From: a virus
IMG/VR virus record: IMGVR_UViG_3300035698_010610
Span: 1 to 64,000 of that record
DNA length: 64,000 nucleotides
Direction: 5' to 3' (one strand)
The position numbers were made by a program, and so were the translations under genes. The notes beneath the pieces were generated by a model, which was given only the letters and a program-made list of their open reading frames with translations, was not told the DNA's origin and searched no databases. This document shows, one piece after another, positions 7,854 through 64,000 of the stretch (positions are counted from its first letter, which is position 1; each line of letters starts with the position of its first letter).

Positions 7854-8069
7854 TCACGCTTCGCGGGGCGAAACTCCGACACCGCCAGGGCCGCCACTTG
7901 ATGCCGCGACGCAACCGGGACCGGCTGCCGCTACGGAGGTACAACCTACTCCCGCGTGAGATGTAGACGCCGCCCCTGGGAATTTCGGAGTGGATGCCGC
8001 CGCCGTCACCCCTTCACCGAACGGCGGCCAGAGGTTGACGATGGGCAGGATACTCAGACCGGTGCTCAC
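7854..8069 (-). CDS. small hypothetical protein
   Basis: GTGA overlap with the upstream gene; low complexity. Confidence 0.35.
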   Translation of the reverse strand: MSTGLSILPIVNLWPPFGEGVTAAASTPKFPGAASTSHAGVGCTSVAAAGPGCVAASSGGPGGVGVSPREA

Positions 8070-11236: not shown

Positions 11237-12585
11237 GCCGCCTCCAAGATGTGCGAAAGTGGTACGGTATAGCCGCCCGCGGCCAGCGTCACGGTCCAGT
11301 CGTCATCCGCCGTCTCGGAGTCGTCGTCGGTGACCTCGACGGTGATCGTCCATACGTGGCCGACAACGAGCGGGTCGGGATCGGCGATCGTGATCGCACC
11401 GGTGGAGGCGTTGATCTGGAACGGCTCGGTAGCCGCGACGGTCGCCGTGCCGGTGGCGTCGGACAAGCCGTAGGGGGCATAATCTCCCAATGACGAGTCG
11501 TTAGTCCACTCCGCCGATCCGGTATTACCCAACTCGTCACTAATGTGCCATGTGCCCGCCCCCGCCCAAATAAACCACCCGCCGCCTACTTTGGTATAGG
11601 CGGCTTCTCCGCCGTAGGTGCCGTCTTCGACGTAGATCCCGGTGGCGTCGGGGTCCAGCGTGCCGGTTACTTCCAGGACTTCGGTGTCGCTCGTCTGGGC
11701 CGTGATCGCGTAGCTGTAGGGCGTGCTCCCGCCAGTGGCCGCGGCCGTGGCCACCTCGTCGTCGGCGGAGTACGGGTCGGCGAGGTTGAGTGTGTCGCCG
11801 GCGATCGCGAGCACCGCCCCCGCCACCGCCGCCGGGGACCACCGACGCGGTGATTGAATCCAACCGTTGTATGTCGGGTCGCTGCGGGCGGAGGCGAGGA
11901 GGGTACGCTCTGCACCAGACAATGCACGATTGAAGATTATCGGGTCGGCTACCGATCCGGCCCAATACTCGCTTGGTGTATCGTCTGTGTATCGGCAAAA
12001 CAGCGAAGTGCCGGTTTTGACGAGCCAGCCGCCGCCCCCGCCGCCATTTACGAGCAGCACATTGTCCAGGTACGGCGTGATCGTTGTACTGGTGTATTCA
12101 ACCAGAAGGTGTGTCCATCGAAAATCGTAGGTCGATGTGAGTTGTGTTCGCCAATCTACATTTCCGGCGGCGATCTCGCTTCCGAGCGCCAGCGTGCCAT
12201 TACCCGTCGCAAGAAACCCTGCCGACACCTTCATCGCATCGCTGTGGAAAACTACAGCGTTATCCTCAACGTCACCGTAGAACCACAACGATAGCGTGAC
12301 GACACTCGGGGAGGGCAGCTTGGAATCATCGAACGTCACGTTGGCAGTGCCAGCAGCACTCACCGCCGCCGTATCCCACGGCGTCCGCGTCCAGGTGGGG
12401 CCGTTCGTGAGCGTGCCGTGTTTGCCGTGCGGGCCTGGGTTGTGCAGGTCGATCAGTCGATTGCCGCCGTCCATCCCCGAGCGGGTCAGGTACGCCGCCA
12501 CGCATCCACGCGACAACGGATGGAACGGGTCCAGCGGTTGGACCATGTCCACCAAGTCGGAATAGTGCGGCGTCAGCAGGCTCAT
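11233..12585 (-). CDS. LamG/ConA-like plus cadherin-like virion protein
   Basis: start MSLLTP at an ATGA overlap; HGTLTNGPTW, TLSLWF, WTHLLV, IFNRALS (LamG); FQINASTGAITI...TITVEVTD (cadherin). Confidence 0.7.
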   Translation of the reverse strand: MSLLTPHYSDLVDMVQPLDPFHPLSRGCVAAYLTRSGMDGGNRLIDLHNPGPHGKHGTLTNGPTWTRTPWDTAAVSAAGTANVTFDDSKLPSPSVVTLSLWFYGDVEDNAVVFHSDAMKVSAGFLATGNGTLALGSEIAAGNVDWRTQLTSTYDFRWTHLLVEYTSTTITPYLDNVLLVNGGGGGGWLVKTGTSLFCRYTDDTPSEYWAGSVADPIIFNRALSGAERTLLASARSDPTYNGWIQSPRRWSPAAVAGAVLAIAGDTLNLADPYSADDEVATAAATGGSTPYSYAITAQTSDTEVLEVTGTLDPDATGIYVEDGTYGGEAAYTKVGGGWFIWAGAGTWHISDELGNTGSAEWTNDSSLGDYAPYGLSDATGTATVAATEPFQINASTGAITIADPDPLVVGHVWTITVEVTDDDSETADDDWTVTLAAGGYTVPLSHILEAA

Positions 12586-13208
12586 GCGATTGTGTCCGAA
12601 TCGTAGGTGATGGCGAGTGCCTTGACGTGGCCGTTGGCACCGGCGGCTCCCCCGTGACACCAGATCACGCGGAACGACTCCATCGCGTTCAGATCCAACG
12701 CACAGACGAACTTGCTGGCGTCGTTCCAAATCTTATCTGCCGAATCCTTCTCGGTAGTCAGGCCGTCTACCAGGTCGATGGAGGTGTTGACGACCACCTT
12801 CAGAACCTCGCCCCACTCGCTGGCAGCCAGCGTCGTCGTGTCCACGAGATAGACCAAGTCGCCAGAGGCAAACGGCTCCTCGTCGGCCACGGTCATAACC
12901 GTCTCGCCAATCGGCTCCGTAGCGGTCAAATCTTCCACTACCGGCGTCGAGCCCACGGCCACGTATTCGGCCACCGTGATCCAGTGCTCGGTTGCCGATC
13001 CGTCGCCCGCGTCCGGTCGCACCTGGACCTTGAACGTGCCGGGATTCGTGTCGGCCGCCGCCTCGATGTAGCCGTGGTACAGGAAGATCACGGCGGCTCG
13101 CTTGGTCCGGCAGTCGATTGCCGAGCCCTTGAGCACACAGGGGTGCGTGCCCAACTGGTGGGCCAGAACCTCCACAGAGTCAGTTTTGGTCGGTGTACTC
13201 GTACTCAT
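12582..13208 (-). CDS. hypothetical structural protein
   Basis: 208 aa, acidic and beta-rich, coupled in the operon. Confidence 0.6.
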   Translation of the reverse strand: MSTSTPTKTDSVEVLAHQLGTHPCVLKGSAIDCRTKRAAVIFLYHGYIEAAADTNPGTFKVQVRPDAGDGSATEHWITVAEYVAVGSTPVVEDLTATEPIGETVMTVADEEPFASGDLVYLVDTTTLAASEWGEVLKVVVNTSIDLVDGLTTEKDSADKIWNDASKFVCALDLNAMESFRVIWCHGGAAGANGHVKALAITYDSDTIA

Positions 13209-21532: not shown

Positions 21533-21829
21533 CTACCCGACAGCACCATCGGGGAGCTTCACGGCAACCGGGCCGCTGGTTTCCACGCTGAGGTATTCCT
21601 CAAAGACTTCATCAGCCATGATTGCAACGAAGGACAGCGGGTCTGTCTTGTGGTCCTCTGGGATCACTGACGACACGGCTGCCGACACAACAGGCGTCCC
21701 TTGCAGCGCGTCTGCGATGGCCTCGAAATGGGCAATGACACCCGCCTCCCCAGACAGCACTCCGTCAACAAACTCCACCGTCGTCGGAGTCAAGCCTCGC
21801 CGCCAGATGCCGGTGATTAGGATTCTCAT
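21533..21829 (-). CDS. small acidic protein coupled to the MuF fusion (candidate immunity protein)
   Basis: ATGA overlap with the MuF stop; 98 aa; role inferred from position. Confidence 0.45.
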   Translation of the reverse strand: MRILITGIWRRGLTPTTVEFVDGVLSGEAGVIAHFEAIADALQGTPVVSAAVSSVIPEDHKTDPLSFVAIMADEVFEEYLSVETSGPVAVKLPDGAVG

Positions 21830-24800
21830 AATGCCAACAGCACCCCCAGGGCGAAGTTTGTGTAATCGCTGTCTTTCCAATACTTCGCAAACTTCCCGCC
21901 GCCGAAAAACGACTCCATTGCCATCGACATGATTTCGGTGCTTCCCGACGAGTAGGTCTTGCCGCAGTATTTGTCGGGGAACTTACCGTCCTTGTATTTC
22001 TCGCCGTCGTTCCACGGAAGGTCTTTCGTTGATTGCCCCTGCGTCCTCCGCTGAACGAATCTATTCTCTGCTGTCCGCAGCCGCATTCGCCCGCCGTTGG
22101 CTTTGAGGTTCCTTGCATGCCAGTGCGCCATTTCATGCGACGCTTCGTTGACGGCTCGCTTCGGCGTGGCTTTCCTGCCCAGGTAAATGTCGTTAGTAGA
22201 GTACGAAAAGTACGCACGGTCGTCCATCGCGGCTTCGATATAGTAGCTTTCACCCCCCTCCCATTCCTTGTGGTACCACTGTGTCGGATAGTCCTGCCTT
22301 GCCTTGTCTACTCCAGCCTTGATTCCCTTCGCCTTCCTTGACTTGGCACCACCGAAACTATCCCATGAAAACGCATACTCGTGCCCTGTGTCCTTCACGC
22401 CGAAGTCCCGACATTCAGCCATCACCTTCCGGAGCTTGTCTGCTTTCTCGGCAGGAGTGTTGCCGGTGTTTTCTATCGCCTTCCGTACCTGAGTAAGCTC
22501 CCTCCTGATTTCTTTCACTTGCGCCGCTTCGGAGGCAGACATCTCTTCAATCGGACGCCGCTTGCCAATAGCGAGCAAATCGTCGACTAGCGACTCTGCT
22601 TGCTGTTTGAGAACTTTTTCAGCAGCCTGACCCTCTCTGAATGCGGCGTCTAAGTGCTCCCGCACTATGTTGCCCACAGCCCTGATGTCATCTTCTGTTT
22701 CAATGCCCGCAGCAACTTTGCGGCGAACTTCCTGGCCAATTGCCTGCACGGGGTCGTTCATGTCGACCGTTTTGCGGCCCGTGAACAAATAGTCGTCCGG
22801 CACAACAACGTCCTGAATCGCGTCCGTTGCCCCGGCAGGTACACTTGCCACTTCAGCTTCGGCTCCACCTGTTGCCAATTGGCCAGCCGTTGGCAGCGGC
22901 AATTGCACAAGCTGCGGAGGCGGTGCCACGCTGTCCGGCCATCCGCCATACGCTCCCGGCTCGGATTGATCGAACTCGGTCGGGACGGACAATGTCGTGC
23001 AGCGGCAGTTTGACAAACACGCACCGTTCGCTATAATGAGGCCGGTTTCAGATTGGAGGTCATAAACCCAATGCGAAAACTCAAACTCCCGAATGTGCAA
23101 CACCTCATCAAGATGCACAAGGCCGGAAGAACTGTCCAGCAAATCGCTAACGACATCGGCTGCTCGGTCTCGCCAATCTATCGGGCTTTCTTGGCTGGAG
23201 GCTACCGCCCCCCTCGTCGTATATCCTTGAACGTCAATGCCCTTGCTGCTGACTACACAGGAGGCATGTCGCTCAAATCCCTGGCCAGCAAGCATGGCGT
23301 TGCCCGCAATGTAATTGCCCTTCGCCTCCAAGAAGCTGGCGTCGAACTCCGAGGCAGGAGCGATGCGGAGCGGCTGAAATGGGTGACACTCAAAACCAGT
23401 CGGGCTGCCGTTATCAGGCAATGCGGCCCCGCCTGGAAAGCCGCCGTTGCCGATGTGCCCGACATCCCGATTGATGCGTGCGTCGAATCTCACCCCGGCT
23501 ACAAACGGGCTGCGGCTGGCAAGTTCGCGAGGCAGTCTGGCATTTACCCGAACGAACAAGCCGTGGCCACGTTCCTGCGGCACAGCGGCACAGACATGCT
23601 GCACCAGTTCCCCGTTGGGCCGTACAATCTCGACTTGGCCCTTGATACCGAATTGATCGCCGTGGAAGTCTGCTGCCTCCCGGCCCACACGTTCAACAAC
23701 AAGCCCGCAGCCCGAACCCGCACGGAAATGCAACGCCTCGAATACATCTTGAATCGCGGCTGGTTCGTCGCGTACCTGATCGGCATAGCTCGCGTCGGCC
23801 GTTACAGGTTCGACCTGTCCGTGATGGGTGGCGACTTGCTCGCCTTGCTGAAGGTCGCCCGCGGCGATAAAACCACGCGAGGTAAGTACGGGGTGGTTTG
23901 GGGTTACGGTGAACCGCCTGCCGCTGCGAAGTATGACTTCAAGGGCCTGCCCTTCGTACCAGGCTTTGGTGCCTGCTACAAATGATCCTCGCACCTTGTT
24001 GCCCGGAAGAATGCAGTGGCATCGCTCCTTCCCTGGCAATGAATGGTGGCCGGGGAACGGTGCAGGAGAAGCACCAACCATGAACACGCCGGTCGGGAAA
24101 TCCTTCGGCACCCGTTTCCCGTGCAGGTCCGCGTGGGACTGGCGGGTATACTGGTCGAACGTCGCCGACCATTCCAGTTGCATCGCAGTCCCGTCGCTGA
24201 CCATCTCCTGATGTTGGACGTGGTGCCCGGAATTCCATGCGCCGCCGCTTTCCGTACGGCCGATGAGTTCCCCTCTGCGGCTGTTGCTATTGAGCCCTAA
24301 CACGCCGTCGGGGTTGCCGTCGCCGATCCGCACGCCCATCTGGTATAGATTCTCACCCTGCGACATTGAGGTGTTGATGGCGGTCGCCAAATTGTTGCGC
24401 GTCGTCATCGACATATCTTGCCAGTACGGCCGGGCCATGATCGTGTTGACCTCAGCCCTGACGGCGGCTTGCGTTTGCGGCGATAGCGTCACCATCAACT
24501 CGTCGATGGGCTTCGCGGCGCGGCGGGGACTCATGCCGAACACGCTGGCGAATATCGCACCATGAACCGCCAAGCCGAGCATGTGCGGGGTCGCAACCCG
24601 GAATAGCTCATCATTCCAGTATTGCGTATCGTAGACCACGTCCACAATGCCGCCGGACGCTGCCGCTCGCTTGAATGCCAGTGACGACGCGGACTTGTGG
24701 AACACGTTGCCGAGACGCACAAGGATTTCCGGACGCATGGCCTCGAACATCGCGGCAATGTCTACTGCCATGTCCCGCTCAAGGCTGTCGAGCTTGCGGA

Positions 24801-26382
24801 CCTGAGCGGTCGCGACACGCTTGGCAAACGTGTAGAATTTGTCCTTCCGCCAAAGCGGTGCGGCCACTGCCGCAGCGGGCTCGCCTTCCTCATCACCGCC
24901 TTCGGCGGCCCCGCCGGATTGTGATCGCCCTTGCCCGCTGCCGTCGTTAGCTCCACAACCCTGGCGAGGCGGTGGCGCGGACGCCGGATCGCGGATAGGC
25001 GTAAACACCTGATTCGCTGGCATCGGCAGATCGGCACCAGCACCTTTCGGCAGTTCTTCGAGTTGGCCGATGTTCACCCGTAGCTCGTCACGGTCCACGG
25101 CGCCGTACTTCGCCAGCAGAGCAAAGTCCTTCCGCCGCTCCTCGGGATCGTTCGGGCGGTATGCGTCCAGCCAGACGTACAGCCTCTCACCGGCCGGGGC
25201 GAAGATGGGGCGAAGCCACTTTGTCAGCACCTGACTCAGTAGTTCGATCTTCGGGTTGATCGTGAAGTCCGCGAAGTGCTCCCTGGCAACGGCAGACGCC
25301 GCACGGCTCATTTGCTCCACGCTGCCGATGATGGCCGGGTTCGTCCCGTGGCCTTGCGTGATGCGGTCCTTTGTGATCCTGCCGGAGCCGCCGAAGTCCA
25401 ATTCCGCCGGGCCGTGGCTGATCTGCTTCACGTCCTTGATAAGCGCGTCGAGAAGCAGCGGTTCCCCGTATTTGTGAACGCCGCCATAATACTGCCGGAC
25501 CGCCGCGTGGATCTGTTGGCGCTGTTCGCGCTCAAGCAGGGGCTTGCCCTCGTCTTCGCCGTCCTCGTCGGTGATGTCGCCGACAATGAGTGCTAACGTC
25601 GGATGGACGCCGTTCTTGAACGTGACCTCCTGAGCGGTCTGCATCGCCTCGTCAGCGAGGACGGCCCTGCGGTTTGCAGCCAGCGGACTGACGCTTCCGA
25701 GCGGATCGCCTGGGTCGGGGTAGGAGAAGTAAACCACCTCGTGGGCTGGACGGACGATCGGCTGCCCGGTCCCACGAGGTGTAATCGCCCACCCCGAAAA
25801 TGCTCCCTTCTTTTTGTCGTGGACCGGGGCCACCCAACTCTTCGGCAGCGGCCAGAGTCGGGCCTGACCATTCTCCCGTGTGATCCACCAGTAGGCTTCA
25901 CCGACCAACTCCAAGGACGCTACCGTGGAGTACCACACCGCCCACCCGGTCAATGCGGGGTTCGGGTCTTCCAGTAGATCGAGGATCGGGTGCTGTTCGT
26001 AAACCTGCAAATTCTCGGCGGCCGACTTGAGGTACCGCGGCGCGTTGCGGGCGGCGAACATCCTCCGCATCCGCTCCTTCGGGTCATCAATCGACAGAGA
26101 ACGGATGCCCGGTTCAACCGCAACACGCAGCGCCTGACCGGCGATGGCTTGACAGATCGGCCGAACGCTCGAATACACCCACCCACGAAACCATTGATAG
26201 TCCTGGCCTTGCGCGTTGCCGTCGGTGAGGATCGCCAGCGGGCTCGTATTCATCGCGTCCAAGGCAATGCCGCCGGATGCCAGACCGGCATCCCGTTGGG
26301 CGGGCGGCGAATAGCTCCGAGCATGGATGGCGATGCGATCCGCCGCGACCGATGCATTCCGATAGATCGTGTCGAGAGACAT
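21826..26382 (-). CDS. portal-MuF fusion with intein and C-terminal HEXXH (zincin-like) domain
   Basis: portal motifs (VYSSVRPI, HPILDLLEDPN, LVGEAYW, GSVSPL); MuF motifs (IGRTE, EWSATFDQYTRQSHADLHG, CH/CRC); HEMAH...EIMSMAME; 1518 aa from MSLDT after GGAG. Confidence 0.88.
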   Translation of the reverse strand: MSLDTIYRNASVAADRIAIHARSYSPPAQRDAGLASGGIALDAMNTSPLAILTDGNAQGQDYQWFRGWVYSSVRPICQAIAGQALRVAVEPGIRSLSIDDPKERMRRMFAARNAPRYLKSAAENLQVYEQHPILDLLEDPNPALTGWAVWYSTVASLELVGEAYWWITRENGQARLWPLPKSWVAPVHDKKKGAFSGWAITPRGTGQPIVRPAHEVVYFSYPDPGDPLGSVSPLAANRRAVLADEAMQTAQEVTFKNGVHPTLALIVGDITDEDGEDEGKPLLEREQRQQIHAAVRQYYGGVHKYGEPLLLDALIKDVKQISHGPAELDFGGSGRITKDRITQGHGTNPAIIGSVEQMSRAASAVAREHFADFTINPKIELLSQVLTKWLRPIFAPAGERLYVWLDAYRPNDPEERRKDFALLAKYGAVDRDELRVNIGQLEELPKGAGADLPMPANQVFTPIRDPASAPPPRQGCGANDGSGQGRSQSGGAAEGGDEEGEPAAAVAAPLWRKDKFYTFAKRVATAQVRKLDSLERDMAVDIAAMFEAMRPEILVRLGNVFHKSASSLAFKRAAASGGIVDVVYDTQYWNDELFRVATPHMLGLAVHGAIFASVFGMSPRRAAKPIDELMVTLSPQTQAAVRAEVNTIMARPYWQDMSMTTRNNLATAINTSMSQGENLYQMGVRIGDGNPDGVLGLNSNSRRGELIGRTESGGAWNSGHHVQHQEMVSDGTAMQLEWSATFDQYTRQSHADLHGKRVPKDFPTGVFMVGASPAPFPGHHSLPGKERCHCILPGNKVRGSFVAGTKAWYEGQALEVILRSGRRFTVTPNHPVLTSRGFIAAGDLQQGEQVATHHGQVEPVTADASYADQVRDEPAAIQDVFEALHFRAGSGCGLVVERVGREAADFHGDQFGIKGQVEIVRPNGELVQHVCAAVPQERGHGLFVRVNARLPRELASRSPFVAGVRFDARINRDVGHIGNGGFPGGAALPDNGSPTGFECHPFQPLRIAPASEFDASFLEAKGNYIAGNAMLAGQGFERHASCVVSSKGIDVQGYTTRGAVASSQESPIDWRDRAADVVSDLLDSSSGLVHLDEVLHIREFEFSHWVYDLQSETGLIIANGACLSNCRCTTLSVPTEFDQSEPGAYGGWPDSVAPPPQLVQLPLPTAGQLATGGAEAEVASVPAGATDAIQDVVVPDDYLFTGRKTVDMNDPVQAIGQEVRRKVAAGIETEDDIRAVGNIVREHLDAAFREGQAAEKVLKQQAESLVDDLLAIGKRRPIEEMSASEAAQVKEIRRELTQVRKAIENTGNTPAEKADKLRKVMAECRDFGVKDTGHEYAFSWDSFGGAKSRKAKGIKAGVDKARQDYPTQWYHKEWEGGESYYIEAAMDDRAYFSYSTNDIYLGRKATPKRAVNEASHEMAHWHARNLKANGGRMRLRTAENRFVQRRTQGQSTKDLPWNDGEKYKDGKFPDKYCGKTYSSGSTEIMSMAMESFFGGGKFAKYWKDSDYTNFALGVLLAL
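23010..23060 (+). promoter_or_regulatory. consensus sigma70 promoter and RBS for the antisense endonuclease
   Basis: TTGACA 23010-15, 16-bp spacer, TATAAT 23032-37, GGAGGT 23055-60, ATG 23071. Confidence 0.8.
23071..23985 (+). CDS. HTH + DUF559/Vsr-like endonuclease, antisense and nested in the intein
   Basis: two HTH-like segments (TVQQIANDIGCSVSPI; SLKSLASKHGVARNVI); NEQAV...HQFPVGPYNLDLAL...IAVEV...H...ILNRGWFV. Confidence 0.8.
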   Translation: MRKLKLPNVQHLIKMHKAGRTVQQIANDIGCSVSPIYRAFLAGGYRPPRRISLNVNALAADYTGGMSLKSLASKHGVARNVIALRLQEAGVELRGRSDAERLKWVTLKTSRAAVIRQCGPAWKAAVADVPDIPIDACVESHPGYKRAAAGKFARQSGIYPNEQAVATFLRHSGTDMLHQFPVGPYNLDLALDTELIAVEVCCLPAHTFNNKPAARTRTEMQRLEYILNRGWFVAYLIGIARVGRYRFDLSVMGGDLLALLKVARGDKTTRGKYGVVWGYGEPPAAAKYDFKGLPFVPGFGACYK

Positions 26383-26392
26383 GCGGCAACTC

Positions 26393-26659
26393 CTACTGTC
26401 TGCCGGTGCGGCGGGTACTCTCAGCAATGTCGGCTAGCCCGCGGTGCCTGATCCGCTCCAACTCCCCGGCGATCAATTCCGCTTCGTGGTTGGCGACACG
26501 GGCATCCGCCTCCAGCATTTTGATCCTGGCCCGAAGGTCCGTGATCTCGTCTTGCTGGACCGCCACAGCTCTCGCAAGGCGAACCTCCTCGGCCGATCTC
26601 CGCGCTGCGTTCATCCAACGGCAAATCGCCGCCGTCATCCTCAACTGTAGTTGCCACAT
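26393..26659 (-). CDS. small coiled-coil protein, first gene of the late operon (probably leaderless)
   Basis: EITDLRARIKMLEAD; ATG begins 7 nt after the -10 box. Confidence 0.55.
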   Translation of the reverse strand: MWQLQLRMTAAICRWMNAARRSAEEVRLARAVAVQQDEITDLRARIKMLEADARVANHEAELIAGELERIRHRGLADIAESTRRTGRQ

Positions 26660-26834: not shown

Positions 26835-27368
26835 ATGCCGCCTCGCGATGTCAAGCGAATCTTCTACCGCGCACTGGTCACGGAGCCCGAGCCGGCGAAC
26901 GTCGACCTTGAATTGACCGTGCTGGGCAAGGTCGCAGCAGAACCGGCCGTCGCCGCGTGGGCGGTCCCGTTCTTGAGCGTCGGGGACTTCACAGATCGGG
27001 AATGCCGCCGCCGGTTTGCTGCCGTCAAACGGGAATGGAAGATGGAACCCACGAGAACCGCATCGGCCGACTCGTATGATGTTGTGATGCGGTTGCGGAG
27101 ACTGACGGCCGAACGGACGGCACGTCAACTCGCATGGCGGTTCGTTCGGTCAGCACACAACATGTCGCCCGAGAAGTTCGCCGACTACGTTATCGAACGG
27201 CTCGGGCAATTCCGCGAACGCCTTGGGGAATCGGGGCTGGGAGGATCGAATGGCCTACAGGTTGAACACGGGCAATCAGGCAAAGCTGCCGGAAGCACCA
27301 CCGAACGCAAGGGGACATCGGGCCCGCCACGAGCCGGGAAAGATGAACAGCCTGGAAAAGCGGTATAG
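26835..27368 (+). CDS. protein with a DnaB N-terminal-like domain
   Basis: PANVDLELTVLG...FLSVGDFTDRECRRRFAAV resembles DnaB_N; start uncertain. Confidence 0.5.
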   Translation: MPPRDVKRIFYRALVTEPEPANVDLELTVLGKVAAEPAVAAWAVPFLSVGDFTDRECRRRFAAVKREWKMEPTRTASADSYDVVMRLRRLTAERTARQLAWRFVRSAHNMSPEKFADYVIERLGQFRERLGESGLGGSNGLQVEHGQSGKAAGSTTERKGTSGPPRAGKDEQPGKAV

Positions 27369-27636
27369 CGAAGAACTTGACTTGCGGTTGCTGGCTGGCG
27401 AGGTGTTATGGTGGCGGTTTGAACCGCTCAAGCTACGGCTCGCGAATGGTACGTTCTACACCGCCGACTTCCTGGTCATGCTGGCGGACCGAACGCTTGA
27501 GGTTGTTGAGGTCAAGGGCGGCCACTGGGAAGATGATGCACGGGTCAAATTCAAAGTCGCCGCAGAACAGTTCCCGATCTTCCGCTTCCGCGCCGTGCAA
27601 TGGAAGGGGAAGGAACGCACAGAGGAAGTCCGATGA
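27250..27636 (+). CDS. PD-(D/E)XK nuclease (DUF1064-like)
   Basis: MNSLEKRY, YTADFLV, VVEVKG, ARVKFK; GGAGG RBS. Confidence 0.8.
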   Translation: MAYRLNTGNQAKLPEAPPNARGHRARHEPGKMNSLEKRYSEELDLRLLAGEVLWWRFEPLKLRLANGTFYTADFLVMLADRTLEVVEVKGGHWEDDARVKFKVAAEQFPIFRFRAVQWKGKERTEEVR

Positions 27637-27845
27637 GCTACACAGTCATTCCGGAGATGGCGTGTTTGCGGTGCAAAGGCCCCATCGTCGTGACTAAAAG
27701 CGGGCTCTGCTGCACGCAATGCGACGCCCCGATAGAACTGCTTAGCCGTCGCGAATTGCAACGGCTCAAGAGGACGCACCCGGGCCGCGTTATGCGATAC
27801 GGCGGTTGGCAACCACAACCCAAACCGGAGGAACCAGAATGCTGA
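27633..27845 (+). CDS. small zinc-ribbon protein
   Basis: CLRC...CTQC; ATGA overlap. Confidence 0.55.
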   Translation: MSYTVIPEMACLRCKGPIVVTKSGLCCTQCDAPIELLSRRELQRLKRTHPGRVMRYGGWQPQPKPEEPEC

Positions 27846-28153
27846 AAGACTCTATCGACACGTTGATCGCCCAACTGCAACGACTGCGGGCTGAATTGGG
27901 CGATGCATTGCAGGCGCCGCCAGTCGTTGAGATAGAATGCGGGGCGATGCAGCAGGACGCTCCGGCGGCCGTGCAAGTCTCCCGTGCAGTGGACTTCGCC
28001 TACGCCGTCAAGCACACGGGCAACCTGAATGTGCTTTTCAAGCAAGCCAAGGGTGCGTGCCGCGTTCTCGCGAGGGCGTATCAATCGGAAACGAAGACGA
28101 CGGTGATTTGCAGGCACGCCGATCGCGTGCTACTTCAACGCCAGGGGGGATGA
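27839..28153 (+). CDS. hypothetical protein
   Basis: GGAGG RBS before MLKDSID. Confidence 0.55.
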   Translation: MLKDSIDTLIAQLQRLRAELGDALQAPPVVEIECGAMQQDAPAAVQVSRAVDFAYAVKHTGNLNVLFKQAKGACRVLARAYQSETKTTVICRHADRVLLQRQGG

Positions 28154-28791
28154 TTGTGCTGACAAAACTCCGTGACCGCATCATGCGTGCGGGAATGCGA
28201 TGGCGACTATACCGCTGGATCACGCACCGCGTCGTTCCGAAGATCCGGCTTTCGTGGGGATACACCGGAATGAGCGAGGCCGCATTCTGGGACGGCGAAT
28301 GGCATTGGCAACCCGGCGACATTATCCTGACGAGCGACCGGGCCAAACTGTCGACCAAGCTGATCCCCGGCACGTTCCCACATGCGATGCTTGCGGTCGG
28401 GAAAAAGCTCCCAGAACTCGGCGTCGGGCACGGCGGCTTCATCGCACAGATGACGAGCAAAGGCTATTCGGAAATCGGCTGGTACGAGACCTGCAAGGAG
28501 TCGGACCGCGTGCTGATCTGCCGGTGCCGCGACTGGGATTACAGGTACGTCACACGGGTCGTGGTGCCGACGTGCCGCAGCTTCGCCAACAAACAGTACG
28601 ACCTGGCTTTCGAGTTGACCCGGCAATCGCTGTACTGTTCGGAGTTGATTTATCAAGCGGACCCGGAGCGGCGGCTGCAACTGAACATGACCGACGTCCT
28701 CGGGATGCCGATGGTCCTGGCTGACGATCTGCTGGCGGCCGAGAATGTCGATGTTGTTTGGGATTCGCAATGGGTAGACAAAACACCGTGA
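28150..28791 (+). CDS. permuted papain-like amidase (YiiX/YebB, NlpC/P60 superfamily)
   Basis: QPGDIIL, FPHAML (His), YDLAF...LYCSELIYQA (Cys). Confidence 0.8.
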   Translation: MIVLTKLRDRIMRAGMRWRLYRWITHRVVPKIRLSWGYTGMSEAAFWDGEWHWQPGDIILTSDRAKLSTKLIPGTFPHAMLAVGKKLPELGVGHGGFIAQMTSKGYSEIGWYETCKESDRVLICRCRDWDYRYVTRVVVPTCRSFANKQYDLAFELTRQSLYCSELIYQADPERRLQLNMTDVLGMPMVLADDLLAAENVDVVWDSQWVDKTP

Positions 28792-28883
28792 TGACCCGCG
28801 CCTTTACGTTGCTCGCCACCGTGCTGCTCATCGCGGTAATCTTGCTGGTGGCGTTTGCATGGAATGACGACGTGTGGTGGTAA
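28791..28883 (+). CDS. 30-aa single-TM peptide
   Basis: MTRAFTLLATVLLIAVILLVAFAWNDDVWW; TGATG coupling to the amidase; below the ORF-track size cut-off. Confidence 0.45.
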   Translation: MTRAFTLLATVLLIAVILLVAFAWNDDVWW

Positions 28884-28909
28884 TAACCCATACAGACAGG
28901 AAGGCCGCA

Positions 28910-29296
28910 ATGGCATACCACGGATTCAGTTCAGACGAGATTCACGGCAAGGTAATTGCAGACCTGCGAGAGTACCTCGAATGCAATGGTGTCAGTTGCG
29001 CCTGCCTCGACAGCGAGAAGACACGCCCACTGTGGGAAACGATCCGCATAGCCTGCGAGGCGGCAGCGTTTCAGACAAACTGCAAGCTGGCGGAATATTG
29101 GCGAACGTCGATCAAGGCGAACGCCGACCTCGGCATCTTGACGCTCTCGCAGGGCGACAAGATCAACAGCCTCCAGGGGGAAATCGAAACCCTGCGGCAG
29201 GCCAACGAGAAATTGACCTCCGATCTCGACAAAGCGGGCAAAGCCCGCGACGACGCCTACCGGCTGCTTGAACAGGGGAGATGCCGTGGCGACTGA
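28910..29296 (+). CDS. coiled-coil hypothetical protein
   Basis: GGAAGG RBS; heptad repeats at the C-terminus. Confidence 0.55.
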   Translation: MAYHGFSSDEIHGKVIADLREYLECNGVSCACLDSEKTRPLWETIRIACEAAAFQTNCKLAEYWRTSIKANADLGILTLSQGDKINSLQGEIETLRQANEKLTSDLDKAGKARDDAYRLLEQGRCRGD

Positions 29297-53752: not shown

Positions 53753-54600
53753 TGGAAACCACGAAATCGGAACTACGCAACCGCGTTATCGCCCTCGCCC
53801 GTGACCTCGAAGAACAGATCAACACGGCTGCGTTTCAAACCGAACGAGCCGACGGGCTGGCACAGGAGGTCGCTGGACTCACCACCGACCTCCGCACGCT
53901 GACGAACACCCTGTTTGAGTTGCGCCGAGCCGCCGCACAAGCAGAAGCCCAGACGAACGCTGACGCTGACCGCGACCGTGCTCGCGAACAACCGAAAGCA
54001 CCGGCGCCAGAAACCACCGGCCACGTCTCTGATGACTCCGGGGACGGCAGGCACGTCACCATCACGACCGGCCCATTCCGTTGCGTGGCGAGATACAAGC
54101 GGAAAGTCCTCGCCGAAAAGATCGGAAACATGCAGCAAGACCAGTTCCAAATCCAGGCGGCATACATCGCTTGCCAACGCCACCTGGAGATGGCCAAGCG
54201 GACCCGCGACCGATGCAAGGCATTATACGAAGGCACGAAGGCGGCAAGATACGAAGACACCCTGAGAGCTTTTGTCACGCACGCCTACGAAGTGCCGCTG
54301 CTTGAATGGGTTCGCCAGCACCACAAGGCATACCTGGCGTGCGATCCCGGCGGCTGTGGAGTTGACTTCCGGAAAGCCATGCAATGCGTCCTCGCACTGG
54401 CAGGGGGCGCCGACGCACGCTCGCCGCAACCCCCTGCCGAAGGCGCTTTGGATGCGCTCACTGCCACGCTGAAAGCAGCCGACGAACACCGAGACATTGC
54501 CAGCGACGTGCCGACGCAAACGGAGGCGAAAGAAGGCGGATCGCCACACAGCGGCATCCCGTCAGCGCCGAACCCCGAAGGCCGGGAACTGGAGCGATGA
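53749..54600 (+). CDS. coiled-coil hypothetical protein
   Basis: 283 aa ORF. Confidence 0.6.
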   Translation: MMETTKSELRNRVIALARDLEEQINTAAFQTERADGLAQEVAGLTTDLRTLTNTLFELRRAAAQAEAQTNADADRDRAREQPKAPAPETTGHVSDDSGDGRHVTITTGPFRCVARYKRKVLAEKIGNMQQDQFQIQAAYIACQRHLEMAKRTRDRCKALYEGTKAARYEDTLRAFVTHAYEVPLLEWVRQHHKAYLACDPGGCGVDFRKAMQCVLALAGGADARSPQPPAEGALDALTATLKAADEHRDIASDVPTQTEAKEGGSPHSGIPSAPNPEGRELER

Positions 54601-54667
54601 ATGGCCGACCGGGCCGCAACAACCGCTTACGTTCGAGACATTAAACACAAAAAGGATTTACACCAAC

Positions 54668-55981
54668 ATGCCCCTACCCGATTCGCTCGACTCCTCGGTG
54701 GTCCTCGACATAACGCAGAACCGCGTCACCGTCACCACCGGCACACACCAGTCCACATTCCTCGACACGATCGAGGAGGCGGCGAACGCCGTCGCGCTGT
54801 GCCACGCAAAGGCAATCCAACTGGAAGACACCATCCGCACGCTGACGGGACGGCGGGAGGAATTGCGGGGGCTCAACCGGCAACTCCAAGATGAAATCCG
54901 GCACCGCAAGGACAAGGCCGAGGAACTTCGCGCTGCCGTAGGGAAATCGCAGATCGCACACGGCAAAGCAACGACAATGGTTGGCCAACACAAAGAGACG
55001 ATCCGCGCACTAGAAAAGCAACTGCACCCCCTCCGGGAGGCCAGGGCGCACGGCGATCCGCAGCGGTTCACCGTTGCGGTTAATCAGGACGAAAACAAAG
55101 TCAGCAATCAATACGTGATCGATTGCGACTCGGAATTTGATGCCATGCAGATCGCCTTCGCATTAGACGGCGGCTGGGGAGCGGACGGAAACGCAACCGG
55201 GCTGCTTGAACTGGCGAGGCGGTATTGCATGACGACTCCAAACGCACAACCGGCAGCGACGATAGACTTGCTGCCCATCGACACGGTGGCTGGAGCGCTG
55301 GCGTTCGTGGACAAAGCACACAAGGGACCGCTGCGGCGATTGCACCGCCAGGCGATGGAGGTGGCTAAAACCTTGGCCGCTGCGTGTCGGCGAGGCATGG
55401 ACTACCGCAAAGAAACGGAAGCGTCGTTACAGAAGGGCGAAGCGGAAGCCAAGCGGTTGCAAGAAGTAGCCAAAATCCTGGTCGACGAAGTCAACTGGCG
55501 GAAAAACCACCACAACGAATTCCTCAAAGAGGCCGCTGCCGACAACCAGTCGCGTGACACGGAGATCGCACGGCTGACCCGCCTTCTGGGTTTGCCGGGG
55601 CCGCGGTCCGCGATAACAAGAGAGCTTGGCGAATGCCAACGCAACGCTGCTGAGTATTCGACGCAGCTTGCCCACGCCAAGAACGAGATCGCGACTTTGC
55701 GACACCGACTCCAGGTCGCGAACGAATTCGGGATGCAAGTCCAGCAACTACTCCAGGACTCCACTGCTTCCGTCCTGCCGCAGAAATGGGACGCGACACC
55801 GGATAACGTCATCGGTGCCTTGACCGCGACCTTATGGACTGCGGAAACCAACCGCGACCAACTGCTGGCGGCAGGGGACGCTCGCGACAAGGCAATTGAC
55901 GCCGCTGACGACATCGAGAATGACCGGGACGCCATTGCAGCCCAGCTCGCTGACGTGCAGCAAAAAGCCCGAAAGCCTTAA
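54668..55981 (+). CDS. long coiled-coil hypothetical protein
   Basis: heptad-rich; start uncertain. Confidence 0.6.
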   Translation: MPLPDSLDSSVVLDITQNRVTVTTGTHQSTFLDTIEEAANAVALCHAKAIQLEDTIRTLTGRREELRGLNRQLQDEIRHRKDKAEELRAAVGKSQIAHGKATTMVGQHKETIRALEKQLHPLREARAHGDPQRFTVAVNQDENKVSNQYVIDCDSEFDAMQIAFALDGGWGADGNATGLLELARRYCMTTPNAQPAATIDLLPIDTVAGALAFVDKAHKGPLRRLHRQAMEVAKTLAAACRRGMDYRKETEASLQKGEAEAKRLQEVAKILVDEVNWRKNHHNEFLKEAAADNQSRDTEIARLTRLLGLPGPRSAITRELGECQRNAAEYSTQLAHAKNEIATLRHRLQVANEFGMQVQQLLQDSTASVLPQKWDATPDNVIGALTATLWTAETNRDQLLAAGDARDKAIDAADDIENDRDAIAAQLADVQQKARKP

Positions 55982-60367: not shown

Positions 60368-61300
60368 ATGACCGTATTGAAGATCACGCAAATCAAAGTC
60401 GATCAGAGCATTTTGGGACGGGCAACACTTGATGAAGGGTTGCTTGTTGAATACGAGGAATTGCGACGGACTGAGGAAGCCGTTTTCCCGCCCATCGTCG
60501 TATTCAAGGACACCGCCGAGAATTACTGGCTCGGCGACGGCAACCACCGCTTGCACGTTGAAAAGAAAATCGGCAACAACACGATAGACGTTGACCTCCG
60601 CGAAGGGTCGAAATCAGACGCCCGATGGTTTGCTGCGGGCGCAAACCTCAACCACGGGCAGCGGCCGTCACGGGGCGACCGGTTGCACGCTATCCAGAAT
60701 TTGCTGCTTGATCCTGCACACCAGAAGCGCCCGTTCGTTGCCATCGGCAAACAGTGCGGAGTATCCAAGCAGTATGTCGCCAAAGTTGCCAACGCACTCA
60801 TTAAGGCTGGCAAATTGAAGCCAGCAGCCGTCGGGAGAAAGACGGTTAAAATCACCACAGGCCAACATGCGGGAAAAACTTACGAGAAAGCATCGCCAGG
60901 GACCGGCGCGAAGGCCAAAAAAACAACAAGCCCGGCAACCGCAGCACCCAAGCCCAACGCAGCAAAGAAGAAGGACCAGCGGGGGCACGTTATTCCTGAA
61001 TACCTCCTTGGCGTCTGGGCTGGCCGGTCCGTGGTGATGGACATGGTGACGGAACTGTCTGCGATCCCGGCCAAGGTGCAAAAGCTGACGGTGCATGCAT
61101 CGGGTGCCGGGTCGATGATCGAGGTCGGGACGGTGAAGGACTTGCTCGGCGAAGCCCGCACCCGCATCAAGAAGTCTGCCCCGTATGTAATTTGCTCCGA
61201 CTGCCGCCCGAGCAATCATGTGTGCAAGGGCTGCAAGCAATGCGACGGGAAGGGATGGTTGTCCGAAGACGAATATTTTGAATGGAAGCAGGAACACTAA
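60368..61300 (+). CDS. ParB/Srx-like protein with HTH and C-terminal zinc finger
   Basis: FPPIVVF, YWLGDGNHR, ANLNHG, IGKQCGVSKQYV, CKQCDGKGW. Confidence 0.8.
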   Translation: MTVLKITQIKVDQSILGRATLDEGLLVEYEELRRTEEAVFPPIVVFKDTAENYWLGDGNHRLHVEKKIGNNTIDVDLREGSKSDARWFAAGANLNHGQRPSRGDRLHAIQNLLLDPAHQKRPFVAIGKQCGVSKQYVAKVANALIKAGKLKPAAVGRKTVKITTGQHAGKTYEKASPGTGAKAKKTTSPATAAPKPNAAKKKDQRGHVIPEYLLGVWAGRSVVMDMVTELSAIPAKVQKLTVHASGAGSMIEVGTVKDLLGEARTRIKKSAPYVICSDCRPSNHVCKGCKQCDGKGWLSEDEYFEWKQEH

Positions 61301-64000
61301 TGGCGACTCCGCAAGTTGAACTGCGGCCGTACCAGAGCGAAGCGGTCGTCAAATTATTCGAGGCGTTCCCGGACAACAACCGCATTCTTGTGTCCATGCC
61401 AACCGGTGTGGGCAAGACGGTTGTTGGGATGTACGCCGCGACGGTCTGGCCCGACGCTTGCGAGGCATTAGGGCTTCCGCCGAAAGTCTTGTGGTTGGCG
61501 CACCGCGAGGAGTTGGTTTTCCAGGCCGTCACCCAATTCCGCAACATGAGCGGCGAAGAGGCGGGCGTCGAAAAAGCGTACGACACGGTGACCAGCAGGC
61601 CGCTACTGGAACGCCCCCGCGTTGTTGCCGCGAGCATCCAGACGCTATTCTCCGAGGAGCGGCGGCTCCTGTTTGCCCCCGATGAATTCGGGTTGATCGT
61701 GATGGATGAATGCGTTGACGGCCTCGCGGCAGTAGAAACAGAACTTGGGACTATTCCACTCAGCGAAGCGGTGCGGCGTAAGGCCAAACGAGTGTTGACG
61801 CATGATGGAACATCTGCTAAGTTCGGTCGCATTGAGGCGTGGGCCAGTAAAGGCCGCCGGGCGGTGTTGCGGGTAGCGACATACGGTGGCACCATTCGCG
61901 TCACGGGGGAACATCCAATATGGACACTGCGGGGATGGGTGGAAGCCCGGCACCTAAAGCCCGGCGACGCCGTTGTGCGTGCGGTTGCGGCGTATGGATA
62001 CCGGCAGTCGACACCAGGGGGCGACCGCGAAAGTGCGCCCCTGGTCATTCGACACCCAGAAGTCGCGAAGAATGGTCGGTTGAGTACGAAAAATTTAAGG
62101 CGTCACTGCCGCTTTGTGAGTGTGGCTGCGGCACTAGCGTTACGCCAAACGCGAGTACGCTATCACGGTTTATTAAATGGCGTGGCACGCGAAGCATTCC
62201 AAGGTATCGCAAAGGCCACGATAAGCGGCCGTCCGGGTGGGAGATCACGCTTACGCCTAACGAGCGGTCGGCGATTCTCGGGACGCTACTCGGCGACTTT
62301 AGCATCGGCTTACCGAACCCACGCAGTAAGAACCCCAGGCTATCCGGGAACCATTCAAGCAAGCAGACGGAGTGGGTTCGCCACAAGGCCGCTATCCTCC
62401 GGCGGCTGTCGCCATCGGTTTCGTTTGCGGCCAATCCTGGGTACGGCGACCAGTTGTGTACGTTTCGGTCAAGTTGCCTCCCGTGTCTGTTGCCGATCTA
62501 TGATCTCACCCGACCGGACGGCGGCCCCAAAGTCATATCGCGGGCATGGCTTGACTCGCTGGGGCCACTGGGGCTCGCGTGGTGGATCTGCGATGACGGC
62601 AGTAGTTCCGCCGGATGGCAGATTGCACTTCACACTGAGGGCTTTGACGACACCAGTATCAGGGCTGTGGCAATGTGGTTTCGAGCTAAATACGGCGAGG
62701 TACGGGTCGCCCAGTCACGCCGAGGCAATAAAACGGTTCACCTTCGCAAAGCGGTCGCCAGCAAGGTCGCGGCTGCCATCCGGCCGCACGTGCCGCCCTG
62801 CATGGCATATAAGCTGCGATACTGTCCTGTCGGTTGACCCTGACGGATCGCGTGAAGTCTACGACCTTGCTGTTGCCGACACGCACTGCTTTTTCGCCAA
62901 TGGCATTCTCGTGCATAATTGTCACCACGGCGTTGCCCCGGCGTGGCAAGAAGTCGCCGACTATTTCGACAAGGGGAGGCTGGTCGGGTTGACGGCTACC
63001 ACGGATCGGGCCGACGAAGTGTCGCTCGGCCAGATGTTCGGTTCAGTGCCGTTCCATTACTCCCTGCCCGATGCGATCAAAGACGGCTACCTGTCGAAGA
63101 TCAAACAGGAGTACATCCGGGTCGAAAGCCTTGACTTTTCCGGCATCAAATTGGAAGACGGCGACCTGTCTGTGAAGGCGGTAGAGGATCGGATCAACCG
63201 CGAACAGACGATCCATGAACTCTGTGCCCCGGTCGCCAAATTGGCGGGGGACCGGCAAACGATCATATTCACACCATCGGTCGGCTCGGCTGAGTCGGTT
63301 GCGGCGCTGATGTCGGCACGGTATAGCAAACGCGGTGCGGTCGCTGTCAGCGGTTCGACGAATCCAGACGACCGGAAAGCAGCGGTGGAAGCGTACCTCC
63401 GGGGCGACATTCAGTTTCTCGTGAATTGTGGTGTATTTCTGGAGGGCTTTGACGCCCCGAATACATCCTGCATCGTCATCGCTCGGCCGACTGCATCGCG
63501 GGCGCTGTACGCTCAGATGATCGGTCGCGGGTTGCGCGGCGGCTGGGCGTGCCCTATTGAAGGAAAAGAGGACTGCCTTGTCCTCGACTTGACTGGCAAG
63601 GCTGCGGACCACCGGTTGGTCGGCTCACCCGATTTGCTCGCTGGGAATTACGACAAAGCCGTAACGGATGAGATCAGACGGCGGATGGAGGAGAAGGGGG
63701 AGGACGGCGAACCGAACGACGTGGATGAGATCATTGCGGAGTGCGTCGCTTCGTCCGACGAGCTACGGAAAATGGCGTTCGTGAAAGTTGTTGCTGACGC
63801 CAAGCTGTCCCGGAAGACCATCGACCCGTTTTCGTTGCTGGATGTCGCCGAGGAGGCGTTGCCGGGCTGGTGGGACGCGAAACAACCACTGCCAGAACAG
63901 ATCGACAAACTGGAGGCAGCGGGGATCAGACACGAGGGCGACTTCGACTACGCATCCGCCCAGAAGCTGTGCCACGAACTCGACGAACGGCGGGCAGCCG
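61300..64000 (+). CDS. SF2 DExH helicase (ResIII/YejH/Irc3-like) with intein, truncated at window end
   Basis: LRPYQ, MPTGVGKT, DE[intein]CHH, GLTAT, EGFDAP, YAQMIGRGLR; hand translation finds no stop through the intein; not in the ORF track, consistent with no stop in the window. Confidence 0.9.
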   Translation, partial: MATPQVELRPYQSEAVVKLFEAFPDNNRILVSMPTGVGKTVVGMYAATVWPDACEALGLPPKVLWLAHREELVFQAVTQFRNMSGEEAGVEKAYDTVTSRPLLERPRVVAASIQTLFSEERRLLFAPDEFGLIVMDECVDGLAAVETELGTIPLSEAVRRKAKRVLTHDGTSAKFGRIEAWASKGRRAVLRVATYGGTIRVTGEHPIWTLRGWVEARHLKPGDAVVRAVAAYGYRQSTPGGDRESAPLVIRHPEVAKNGRLSTKNLRRHCRFVSVAAALALRQTRVRYHGLLNGVAREAFQGIAKATISGRPGGRSRLRLTSGRRFSGRYSATLASAYRTHAVRTPGYPGTIQASRRSGFATRPLSSGGCRHRFRLRPILGTATSCVRFGQVASRVCCRSMISPDRTAAPKSYRGHGLTRWGHWGSRGGSAMTAVVPPDGRLHFTLRALTTPVSGLWQCGFELNTARYGSPSHAEAIKRFTFAKRSPARSRLPSGRTCRPAWHISCDTVLSVDPDGSREVYDLAVADTHCFFANGILVHNCHHGVAPAWQEVADYFDKGRLVGLTATTDRADEVSLGQMFGSVPFHYSLPDAIKDGYLSKIKQEYIRVESLDFSGIKLEDGDLSVKAVEDRINREQTIHELCAPVAKLAGDRQTIIFTPSVGSAESVAALMSARYSKRGAVAVSGSTNPDDRKAAVEAYLRGDIQFLVNCGVFLEGFDAPNTSCIVIARPTASRALYAQMIGRGLRGGWACPIEGKEDCLVLDLTGKAADHRLVGSPDLLAGNYDKAVTDEIRRRMEEKGEDGEPNDVDEIIAECVASSDELRKMAFVKVVADAKLSRKTIDPFSLLDVAEEALPGWWDAKQPLPEQIDKLEAAGIRHEGDFDYASAQKLCHELDERRAA
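61711..62919 (+). mobile_element. intein (403 aa) in helicase motif II, no in-frame endonuclease
   Basis: starts CVDG; block B VTGEHPIWT; block F VYDLAV; ends FFANGILVHN with +1 Cys; removal restores DECHH. Confidence 0.92.
61920..62837 (+). CDS. LAGLIDADG homing endonuclease in the -1 frame inside the intein
   Basis: ILGTLLGD, HSSKQTEW, GLAWWICDDGS, LHTEGF, MAYKL; two CxCGCG...GH modules; GGGGGA 9 nt before the ATG. Confidence 0.85.
   Translation: MDTAGMGGSPAPKARRRRCACGCGVWIPAVDTRGRPRKCAPGHSTPRSREEWSVEYEKFKASLPLCECGCGTSVTPNASTLSRFIKWRGTRSIPRYRKGHDKRPSGWEITLTPNERSAILGTLLGDFSIGLPNPRSKNPRLSGNHSSKQTEWVRHKAAILRRLSPSVSFAANPGYGDQLCTFRSSCLPCLLPIYDLTRPDGGPKVISRAWLDSLGPLGLAWWICDDGSSSAGWQIALHTEGFDDTSIRAVAMWFRAKYGEVRVAQSRRGNKTVHLRKAVASKVAAAIRPHVPPCMAYKLRYCPVG

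Follow-up and report, generated by a model that had tools for sequence, protein, structure and literature searches.

A phage helicase intein with a predicted LAGLIDADG endonuclease in the overlapping -1 frame and kinship to the cyanobacterial DnaX intein

Here, we describe an intein in the helicase gene of a tailed phage, the middle part of which appears to be read in two frames. The intein lies at positions 61711 to 62919 of a 64,000-nucleotide stretch of DNA (hereafter, the window), which is the first 64 kb of the 90,314-bp virus record IMGVR_UViG_3300035698_010610. By its sequence features, it is a class-1 intein inserted at DE|CHH (the bar marks the insertion point) in motif II of a tailed-phage superfamily 2 (SF2) helicase. 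The best explanation of our findings, and one that we consider quite probable, is that this intein carries a disordered filler in the helicase frame (hereafter, the host frame), while an overlapping endonuclease in the -1 frame is made separately and supports homing. According to this model, the stretch between the two Hint halves would be read in both frames. In the host frame, it would give a 271-residue filler for which the sole requirement is the absence of stop codons, and the helicase precursor, translated in one piece, would be repaired by protein splicing with the filler present. In the -1 frame, internal initiation at 61935, or at an ATG at 61920 that is specific to the window, would give a free endonuclease that cuts intein-less helicase alleles at DE|[A/C]H, upon which the whole element would be copied. 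The features of the helicase gene, the intein and the endonuclease gene are as follows.

61300 to 64000, continuing to 64392 of the contig, + strand: SF2 (DExH) helicase gene, 1030 residues including the intein (open reading frame [ORF] and Pfam).
61300 to 61710, + strand: N-extein, ending ...VMDE, the first half of helicase motif II.
61711 to 61989, + strand: Hint N-terminal half, intein residues 1-93, with Cys1 and block B (TGEH...GW); predicted local distance difference test score (pLDDT) >90; aligns with the Spl DnaX mini-intein.
61906 to 61912, + strand: putative Shine-Dalgarno-like GGGGGAA, 7 nt before the ATG at 61920, read from the sequence.
61920 to 62837, + strand, -1 frame of the helicase: homing endonuclease ORF, 305 residues from the ATG at 61920 (Pfam, homologues).
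61935 to 61937, + strand: conserved candidate start in GGA-TGG (Gly-Trp of Hint block B), 300-residue product.
61974 to 62048, + strand: first CxCGCG...GH module; short strands modelled at residues 16-28.
61990 to 62802, + strand: host-frame filler, intein residues 94-364, 271 residues; open, protein not conserved; pLDDT <50 throughout.
62115 to 62219, + strand: second CxCGCG...GH module; C66, C68, G69, C70, G71 and H100 nearly invariant in the alignment.
62265 to 62696, + strand: LAGLIDADG_2 core (Pfam and six-frame family search).
62274 to 62309, + strand: motif 1 (ILGTLLGDFSIG; ILGTLLGD); D126 invariant.
62574 to 62603, + strand: motif 2 (LAWWICDDGS); D225 kept in at least 90% of sequences.
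62803 to 62919, + strand: Hint C-terminal half, residues 365-403, ending ...THCFFANGILVHN before Cys+1; pLDDT >90.
62920 to 64000, + strand: C-extein, beginning CHHG, the second half of motif II; runs past the end of the window.

Several lines of evidence show that the host frame encodes a continuous intein. An earlier reading of this DNA, made from the sequence only, had described the helicase frame as open through all 403 intein codons and the host-frame middle as rich in Arg, Ser and Gly. Both descriptions hold: the insert, which splits motif II after ...VMDE, has 0 stops in the helicase frame, and the 271 filler residues include 43 Arg, 30 Ala, 30 Gly and 27 Ser. The insert starts with Cys, ends ...GILVHN and is followed by the codons for CHH, while distant intein-less helicase homologues have an uninterrupted DEAHH at the insertion site. 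The host frame matches the Pfam family Intein_splicing (PF14890) with 45 bits (cut-off 35.8). The intein catalytic residues in the window are C1, T65, H68, H402 and N403, followed by Cys+1, and C1, T65, W76, H402 and N403 are invariant columns in the family alignment. In the structure prediction for the host-frame intein, residues 1-93 and 365-403 have pLDDT >90 and residues 94-364 <50, i.e., a filler that is predicted to be disordered between two Hint halves that are predicted to be well folded. The host-frame alignment of relatives has mere "shadows" of the endonuclease motifs in this region, e.g., GG[SFY]A[MT]T beneath WWICDDG.

The shifted frame, in turn, contains an intact gene for an I-SceI-like LAGLIDADG_2 endonuclease. 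The shifted ORF matches the Pfam family LAGLIDADG_2 (PF03161) with 76.9 bits (E 2.3e-21, cut-off 25), and the six-frame family search gave 78.6 bits; the third frame has 19 stops across the span of the endonuclease ORF. The model of the endonuclease frame has a mean pLDDT of 90.6, and its best Foldseek matches are I-SceI (1r7m, E 1.8e-12, target TM 0.74) and I-WcaI (6x1j, TM 0.75), the latter also being matched by sequence profile (E 1.4e-19). The two LAGLIDADG motifs in one chain, with a conserved acidic residue in each, correspond to the pattern of monomeric enzymes. We infer a zinc-binding, DNA-binding role for the two CxCGCG modules. Databases contain 22 homologues of 200-394 residues, 19 of which are 34-50% identical to the endonuclease. 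The sequence-only reading had anticipated much of this layout, namely, a two-motif LAGLIDADG protein at 61920-62837 with N-terminal CxCGCG modules, a GGGGGA ribosome-binding site in block B and a stop codon just before block F; in agreement with it, GGGGGA lies at 61906-61911 inside the TGEH codons, and the stop codon at 62835-62837 is 20 nt upstream of the VYDLAV block.

The openness of the host frame exceeds what chance would give. Relative to the endonuclease ORF, the host frame is the +1 frame, and over this ORF, it has 0 stops, while 4.8-7.7 are expected. In simulations, zero stops were reached in 0/5000 codon-order shuffles, 16/5000 synonymous resamplings and 0/5000 synonymous permutations. 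As a comparison from the same genome, the +1 frame of 91 proxy genes contains 709 stops in 23,028 codons (one per 32 codons); open runs in it reach at most 185 codons, and 0/4771 segments of 290 codons are open.

The same layout recurs in related loci. Searches of viral, genome and metagenome collections with the alignment of endonuclease homologues gave 66 loci, which were sorted by the stop-free frame that spans the endonuclease match: relative to the spanning ORF, the frame of the endonuclease is -1 in 26 loci, as in the window, +1 in 15 and the same in 13, while 12 have no spanning ORF. In the -1 class, tblastn with pieces of the window places the N-extein, Hint-N, Hint-C and C-extein in a shared frame and the endonuclease one frame back. 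The site DE|C, a -1 endonuclease and a host frame with 0 stops are common to all 23 complete copies (22 loci and the window); these copies represent 19 clusters at 90% nucleotide identity (hereafter, lineages), with a G+C content from 31% to 61%. Outside this table are L034, L037 and L045, which are cut by contig ends and have 0 host-frame stops in their sequenced parts, and L039, which has no Hint-N match and in which the host-frame ORF spans the endonuclease match. In each lineage, 0 host-frame stops compare with 3.1-13.5 expected, and zero stops were reached in only 0-13/2000 codon shuffles and 0-28/2000 synonymous permutations.

Substitutions between relatives distinguish the two frames. 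Host codon position 2 is the wobble position of the endonuclease. Between L040 and L042, differences at host codon positions 1, 2 and 3 number 45, 28 and 144 in the exteins (300 sites each) and 10, 64 and 15 in the overlap core (255 sites each). Similarly, L027 and L033 differ at 69, 49 and 152 sites in the exteins (292 sites each) and at 15, 62 and 29 sites in the core (262 sites each). In closer pairs, differences concentrate at host position 3 in the exteins and Hint halves and at host position 2 in the overlap. This wobble pattern is present in five of the six pairs that differ in the overlap, the sixth, L001 versus L004, differing at a single overlap site. Because substitutions peak at the endonuclease wobble position, the overlap evolves as an endonuclease gene, the other frame just avoiding stops. 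Altogether, these comparisons show purifying selection on the endonuclease frame combined with stop-avoidance in the host frame.

Other loci in the collection carry related arrangements. In the +1 class (L007-L014, L029, L051-L055 and L064), the LAGLIDADG_2 gene is shorter, has no CxCGCG modules and lies inside a long spanning ORF. Among its hosts are DEAD-box helicases (L011, L013), Intein_splicing-positive proteins (L009, L055) and terminase-like proteins (L010, L029, L051). Seven of the ten loci of this class that were tested have 0 host stops versus 9.0-17.2 expected, with 0/2000 permutations reaching zero; of the remaining loci, L029 and L053 reach zero stops in 1/2000 permutations each and L051 (72% G+C) in 229/2000. 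The cultured Xanthomonas phage FoX3 (L005/L070, MT161383) carries the contiguous overprinted form in gp40 (26902-29268), which its record names "putative DNA helicase" while the endonuclease gene is unannotated. Finally, the helicases P0062 and P0072 have two inteins each, a canonical Hom_end/Hom_end_hint intein upstream and one of the overprinted type at DE|CH.

The family is also connected to an intein in a different protein. Among solved structures, the Spl DnaX mini-intein is by far the closest to the family Hint profile (E 8.8e-35; next, 5.6e-24). A search for homologous proteins of greater length had yielded 5 helicases and no DnaX protein. When 1.84 billion representatives were searched exhaustively with the profile, 570 matched at E up to 1e-30, and the best 150 of these were examined. 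In 90 of these best 150 of 570, the best stretch spans profile positions 1-405; the other 60, with a best stretch that does not span these positions, are outside the tally of 90. By their flanks, 16 of the 90 are DnaX inteins (IDE|CHMLS...LLKTLEEP) and 74 lie in helicase-like proteins, and a Pfam check of this flank-based assignment confirmed 4/4 DnaX proteins and 4/4 helicases. The junction among the 90 is DE|CH in 74, DE|CQ in 13 and another in 3. Alignment of the family with one DnaX protein by hhalign extends over 397 columns, including the filler (E 2e-45). Moreover, a profile of the filler only matched inside the inteins of 16/16 DnaX proteins (E 3.6e-30 to 9.2e-18) and 0/32 shuffled or reversed controls. 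By these profile matches, the window element is homologous to the cyanobacterial DnaX intein. Because the filler is a shadow of the endonuclease and matches DnaX, they would also imply a homologous DnaX endonuclease in the same relative frame.

In a tree, the 16 DnaX inteins fall on one side of a branch (SH-aLRT 100) and adjoin a helicase group (support 85); this tree is built from host-frame translations, including a filler without protein-level selection, and has only a midpoint root, such that it does not show the direction of transfer. We suggest tentatively, as a reading that is plausible but falls somewhat short of probable, that the DnaX intein is a small offshoot of a larger, still mobile lineage of phage helicase inteins in which the endonuclease is out of frame throughout. 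If so, the element would have moved between unrelated P-loop proteins (extein switching) by way of their shared Walker-B junction DE|CH, and a phage source for the DnaX endonuclease would be named. Overprinting would then have been maintained by selection over long periods instead of being a passing intermediate, with the endonuclease start hard-wired in the block-B Gly-Trp, and gp40 of FoX3 would offer a cultured system for testing the model of intein origin in which splicing came first and the endonuclease invaded later.

How might the endonuclease be made? The conserved candidate start at 61935 is located 32 nt after the block-B Thr codon, and a start codon is present at this place in 19/19 lineages (ATG in 15, GTG in 3 and TTG in 1). 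The codon preceding the block-B Trp is GGA in 14 lineages, GGG in 3, AGA in 1, GGT in 1 and GGC in 0, while the extein background for Gly has GGC as the commonest codon (296/785) and GGA at 164/785. From the conserved start to the stop codon, the endonuclease frame is open in 18/19 lineages. The sequence-only reading had placed the start at 61920; an ATG spanning the ATA TGG codons is indeed present there and may also serve as a start, but it is specific to this phage, and the start that is conserved in relatives is the one at 61935, 15 nt downstream. In many relatives, an ATG precedes the block-B Thr codon by four bases ("MH..." starts); in L036, L040 and L044, an in-frame stop follows this ATG. 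Because a start codon is kept at a fixed place and there is no conserved slippery heptamer, internal initiation is the best-supported and most likely route to the endonuclease. Comparative and structural considerations thus favor the proposal of the sequence-only reading that a free endonuclease would be made by internal initiation while the intein splices out a filler polypeptide.

Some observations weigh against the explanation that we favor. Only 8/19 lineages have a Shine-Dalgarno-like motif at a suitable spacing (GGAG, GAGG or AGGA, 4-5 nt upstream of the conserved start), and in the window, the purines directly adjoin the ATG at 61935. L032 has a stop two codons past the conserved start and would require another start. 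L048 (= P0020, 1235-2570) is a decayed copy, in which the endonuclease is divided among three frames and the host frame ends at 2428, so decay occurs; a sequencing error in the short contig is possible. That the intein splices with 271 disordered residues in its middle is assumed because the DnaX intein is analogous. Lastly, the shared frame of the DnaX endonuclease is implied by, and deduced from, the host-frame protein alone.

Four other explanations were considered, two of which deny that there are two working frames. The intein could be a canonical one, with an in-frame endonuclease, whose middle has been displaced by two compensating sequencing or assembly indels. The frame changes do fall at domain borders, where one indel at each would do. 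However, contigs from three other salt-lake runs span 61920-62143 and 62751-63100 with 0 differences and 0 gaps, such that both junctions are gap-free in independent contigs, even though this support consists of contigs at a depth of only 2-3 and not of raw reads; one run, possibly the source, covers the whole stretch at a depth of 12.2. Moreover, the same offset was found again in 26/66 related loci and in 19 diverged lineages, and the accident of an open host frame, seen in few resamplings here, would have to be repeated in every lineage. We regard this explanation as extremely improbable, and the two-frame layout is not a sequencing artefact. The sequence-only reading was accordingly right to consider a simple frameshift error inadequate, and the checks it had named point in the same direction: compensating indels near the junctions are absent from the independent contigs, the LAGLIDADG_2 match is specific to the shifted frame, and frame-specific conservation across homologues was found. 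Alternatively, the endonuclease gene could be a dead relic in an element that persists as a splicing intein, with both frames open for other reasons. While the decayed copy L048 is in line with this idea, the purifying selection suggested by the wobble pattern, the conserved catalytic Asp residues and the confident I-SceI-like model are not. Neither is the evidence for mobility: L001 and L004 differ at 104/897 extein sites (11.6%) and 2/1218 intein sites, and L040 and L042 at 24% of extein and 12% of intein sites. Because a nearly identical intein resides in diverged exteins, the element has been transferred recently between phages, pointing to recent homing, and we consider a silent relic very improbable.

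The other two explanations accept both frames and concern how the proteins are made. Programmed -1 ribosomal frameshifting would give a fusion of N-extein, Hint-N and endonuclease rather than a free protein. This would suit an endonuclease on the same strand in a -1 frame that is already open upstream of the block-B start codon, as well as the 11/19 lineages that are without a well-spaced Shine-Dalgarno motif. By contrast, the relevant 330 nt contain no slippery heptamer in 9/19 lineages and have one at differing places in the others. L032, L036, L040 and L044 also have an endonuclease-frame stop 5-38 nt past the block-B Thr codon, and a shift would be confined to a few codons before the conserved start, or before a start at +77 in L032. 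Together with a start codon that is kept at a fixed place beyond what codon usage accounts for, this makes frameshifting very unlikely. The helicase might, instead, be the product of a "fractured gene", made in two pieces that a split intein joins by trans-splicing. Related Pectobacterium phages have this form; in one of them, Ymer, the DE|C site and the -1 endonuclease are the same as in the window, and ~19 stops break the host frame. However, neither the window nor any of the 22 complete family loci has a host-frame stop, a separate start for a C-terminal piece is unneeded, and stop-avoidance argues that read-through is important. To trans-splicing in the window, we therefore give very little credence, and we return to the explanation of a contiguous helicase precursor with a separately made endonuclease.

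The record has direct terminal repeats and is rated complete; the window encodes portal, tape-measure, large terminase and major head proteins, and DNA of the virus was detected in salt-lake metagenomes. The helicase has Pfam matches to ResIII, DEAD and Helicase_C, its start at 61300 overlaps the stop codon of a ParB-like gene (TAATG), and the database protein P0026 (1030 residues) is 100% identical to it. A search of viral contigs with the C-extein found two distant intein-less homologues only (DEAHH) and no close empty allele. Elsewhere in the window, a 1532-residue ORF on the - strand (21826-26427) has portal matches at residues 143-804 and head-morphogenesis/head-protein matches at residues 669-947, its long C-terminal part being without explanation. 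With a threshold of E up to 1e-5, PHROGs gave no match for three further large ORFs, of 1055 (8066-11236, - strand), 497 (11233-12729, - strand) and 494 residues (54497-55981, + strand).

By definition, an intein is in frame with its host gene, and both annotation pipelines and intein surveys translate its middle part accordingly. Our findings suggest that such a translation misreads a large family of helicase inteins as well as the related DnaX inteins; the whole element is present in at least 90 clusters (50% identity). In these inteins, the endonuclease would be a separate, overlapping gene, which is unannotated even in the cultured FoX3. The family also provides strong natural evidence that the Hint domain tolerates a disordered insert of ~270 residues, and it presents one stretch of DNA under two selection regimes, which keep one frame free of stops and preserve the protein encoded by the other. 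While no new principle emerges, the finding widens and connects recent reports.

The closest known system is the cyanobacterial dnaX intein, which is described as having a disordered in-frame middle, a LAGLIDADG endonuclease in a "+2 ORF", Shine-Dalgarno motifs and frame-specific dN/dS (10.64898/2026.09.14.751524). Phillips, DeSimone and Gogarten credit Gorbalenya 1998 with the first proposal of an out-of-frame endonuclease, and they report that they were unable to trace the source of the DnaX endonuclease (10.64898/2026.09.14.751524). The two systems are alike in their contiguous Hint halves, disordered in-frame filler, same-strand overlapping LAGLIDADG gene and frame-specific selection, and both have the junction DE|CH within the Walker-B box; the solved enzyme that comes closest is I-WcaI (6x1j) in each case. 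They differ in the host, which is a bacterial clamp-loader subunit (DNA polymerase III gamma/tau) in the DnaX case and a phage SF2 helicase here, and in size, the DnaX branch having 16 clusters versus 74 helicase clusters among the 90 full-length matches in the best 150 of 570. The junction DE|CH common to helicases and DnaX would represent a concrete case of extein switching via a nucleotide-binding motif.

Actinophages have other noncanonical inteins with antisense LAGLIDADG, antisense VSR-like and frame-3 endonuclease VII-like genes, which Gosselin, Arsenault and Gogarten explain by a free-standing endonuclease gene that invaded an intein (10.1101/2025.01.02.630785). In contrast to the window, the hosts there are DNA polymerase, minor capsid, terminase and thymidylate synthase (10.1101/2025.01.02.630785), and the main text, as distinct from the supplementary tables, mentions neither a same-strand LAGLIDADG nor a helicase host of the window type. 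Our literature search found no report of a helicase intein with an alternative-frame LAGLIDADG, Supplemental Table 1 of Gosselin et al. lying outside its coverage and being a place where cases could be listed; among the papers listed, it also found no relevant report tying FoX3 to an intein. The ShiLan-type HNH insertions in phage methylases share with the window a shifted-frame endonuclease and a stop-free host frame but have no detectable splicing domain (PMC11855218), while the window has both Hint halves with confidence.

In fractured genes, the halves of a split intein are separated by a free-standing endonuclease gene, which extends into the downstream half (Dassa et al. 2009, PMC2677866). 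These genes resemble the window in having phage DNA-metabolism hosts and an endonuclease gene between intein halves and differ from it in that the intein is split, while the host frame of the window is continuous, and in that the endonucleases described are GIY-YIG or Vsr-like rather than LAGLIDADG (PMC2677866). The Ymer locus (L071, OP748252, 1264-4374), with its DE|C site, a -1 endonuclease starting MHGESQ and the ~19 host-frame stops, is annotated as three overlapping coding sequences and is a split form of the window element. The contiguous and split forms of one element thus connect two published models of intein evolution. Out-of-frame intein endonucleases are rare according to the authors of the 2025-2026 preprints, and the novelty that the sequence-only reading implied for the arrangement was too high, since it is already in the literature. 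Altogether, the arrangement has been described before, and the window adds to it a new phage-helicase member of the DnaX-type lineage.

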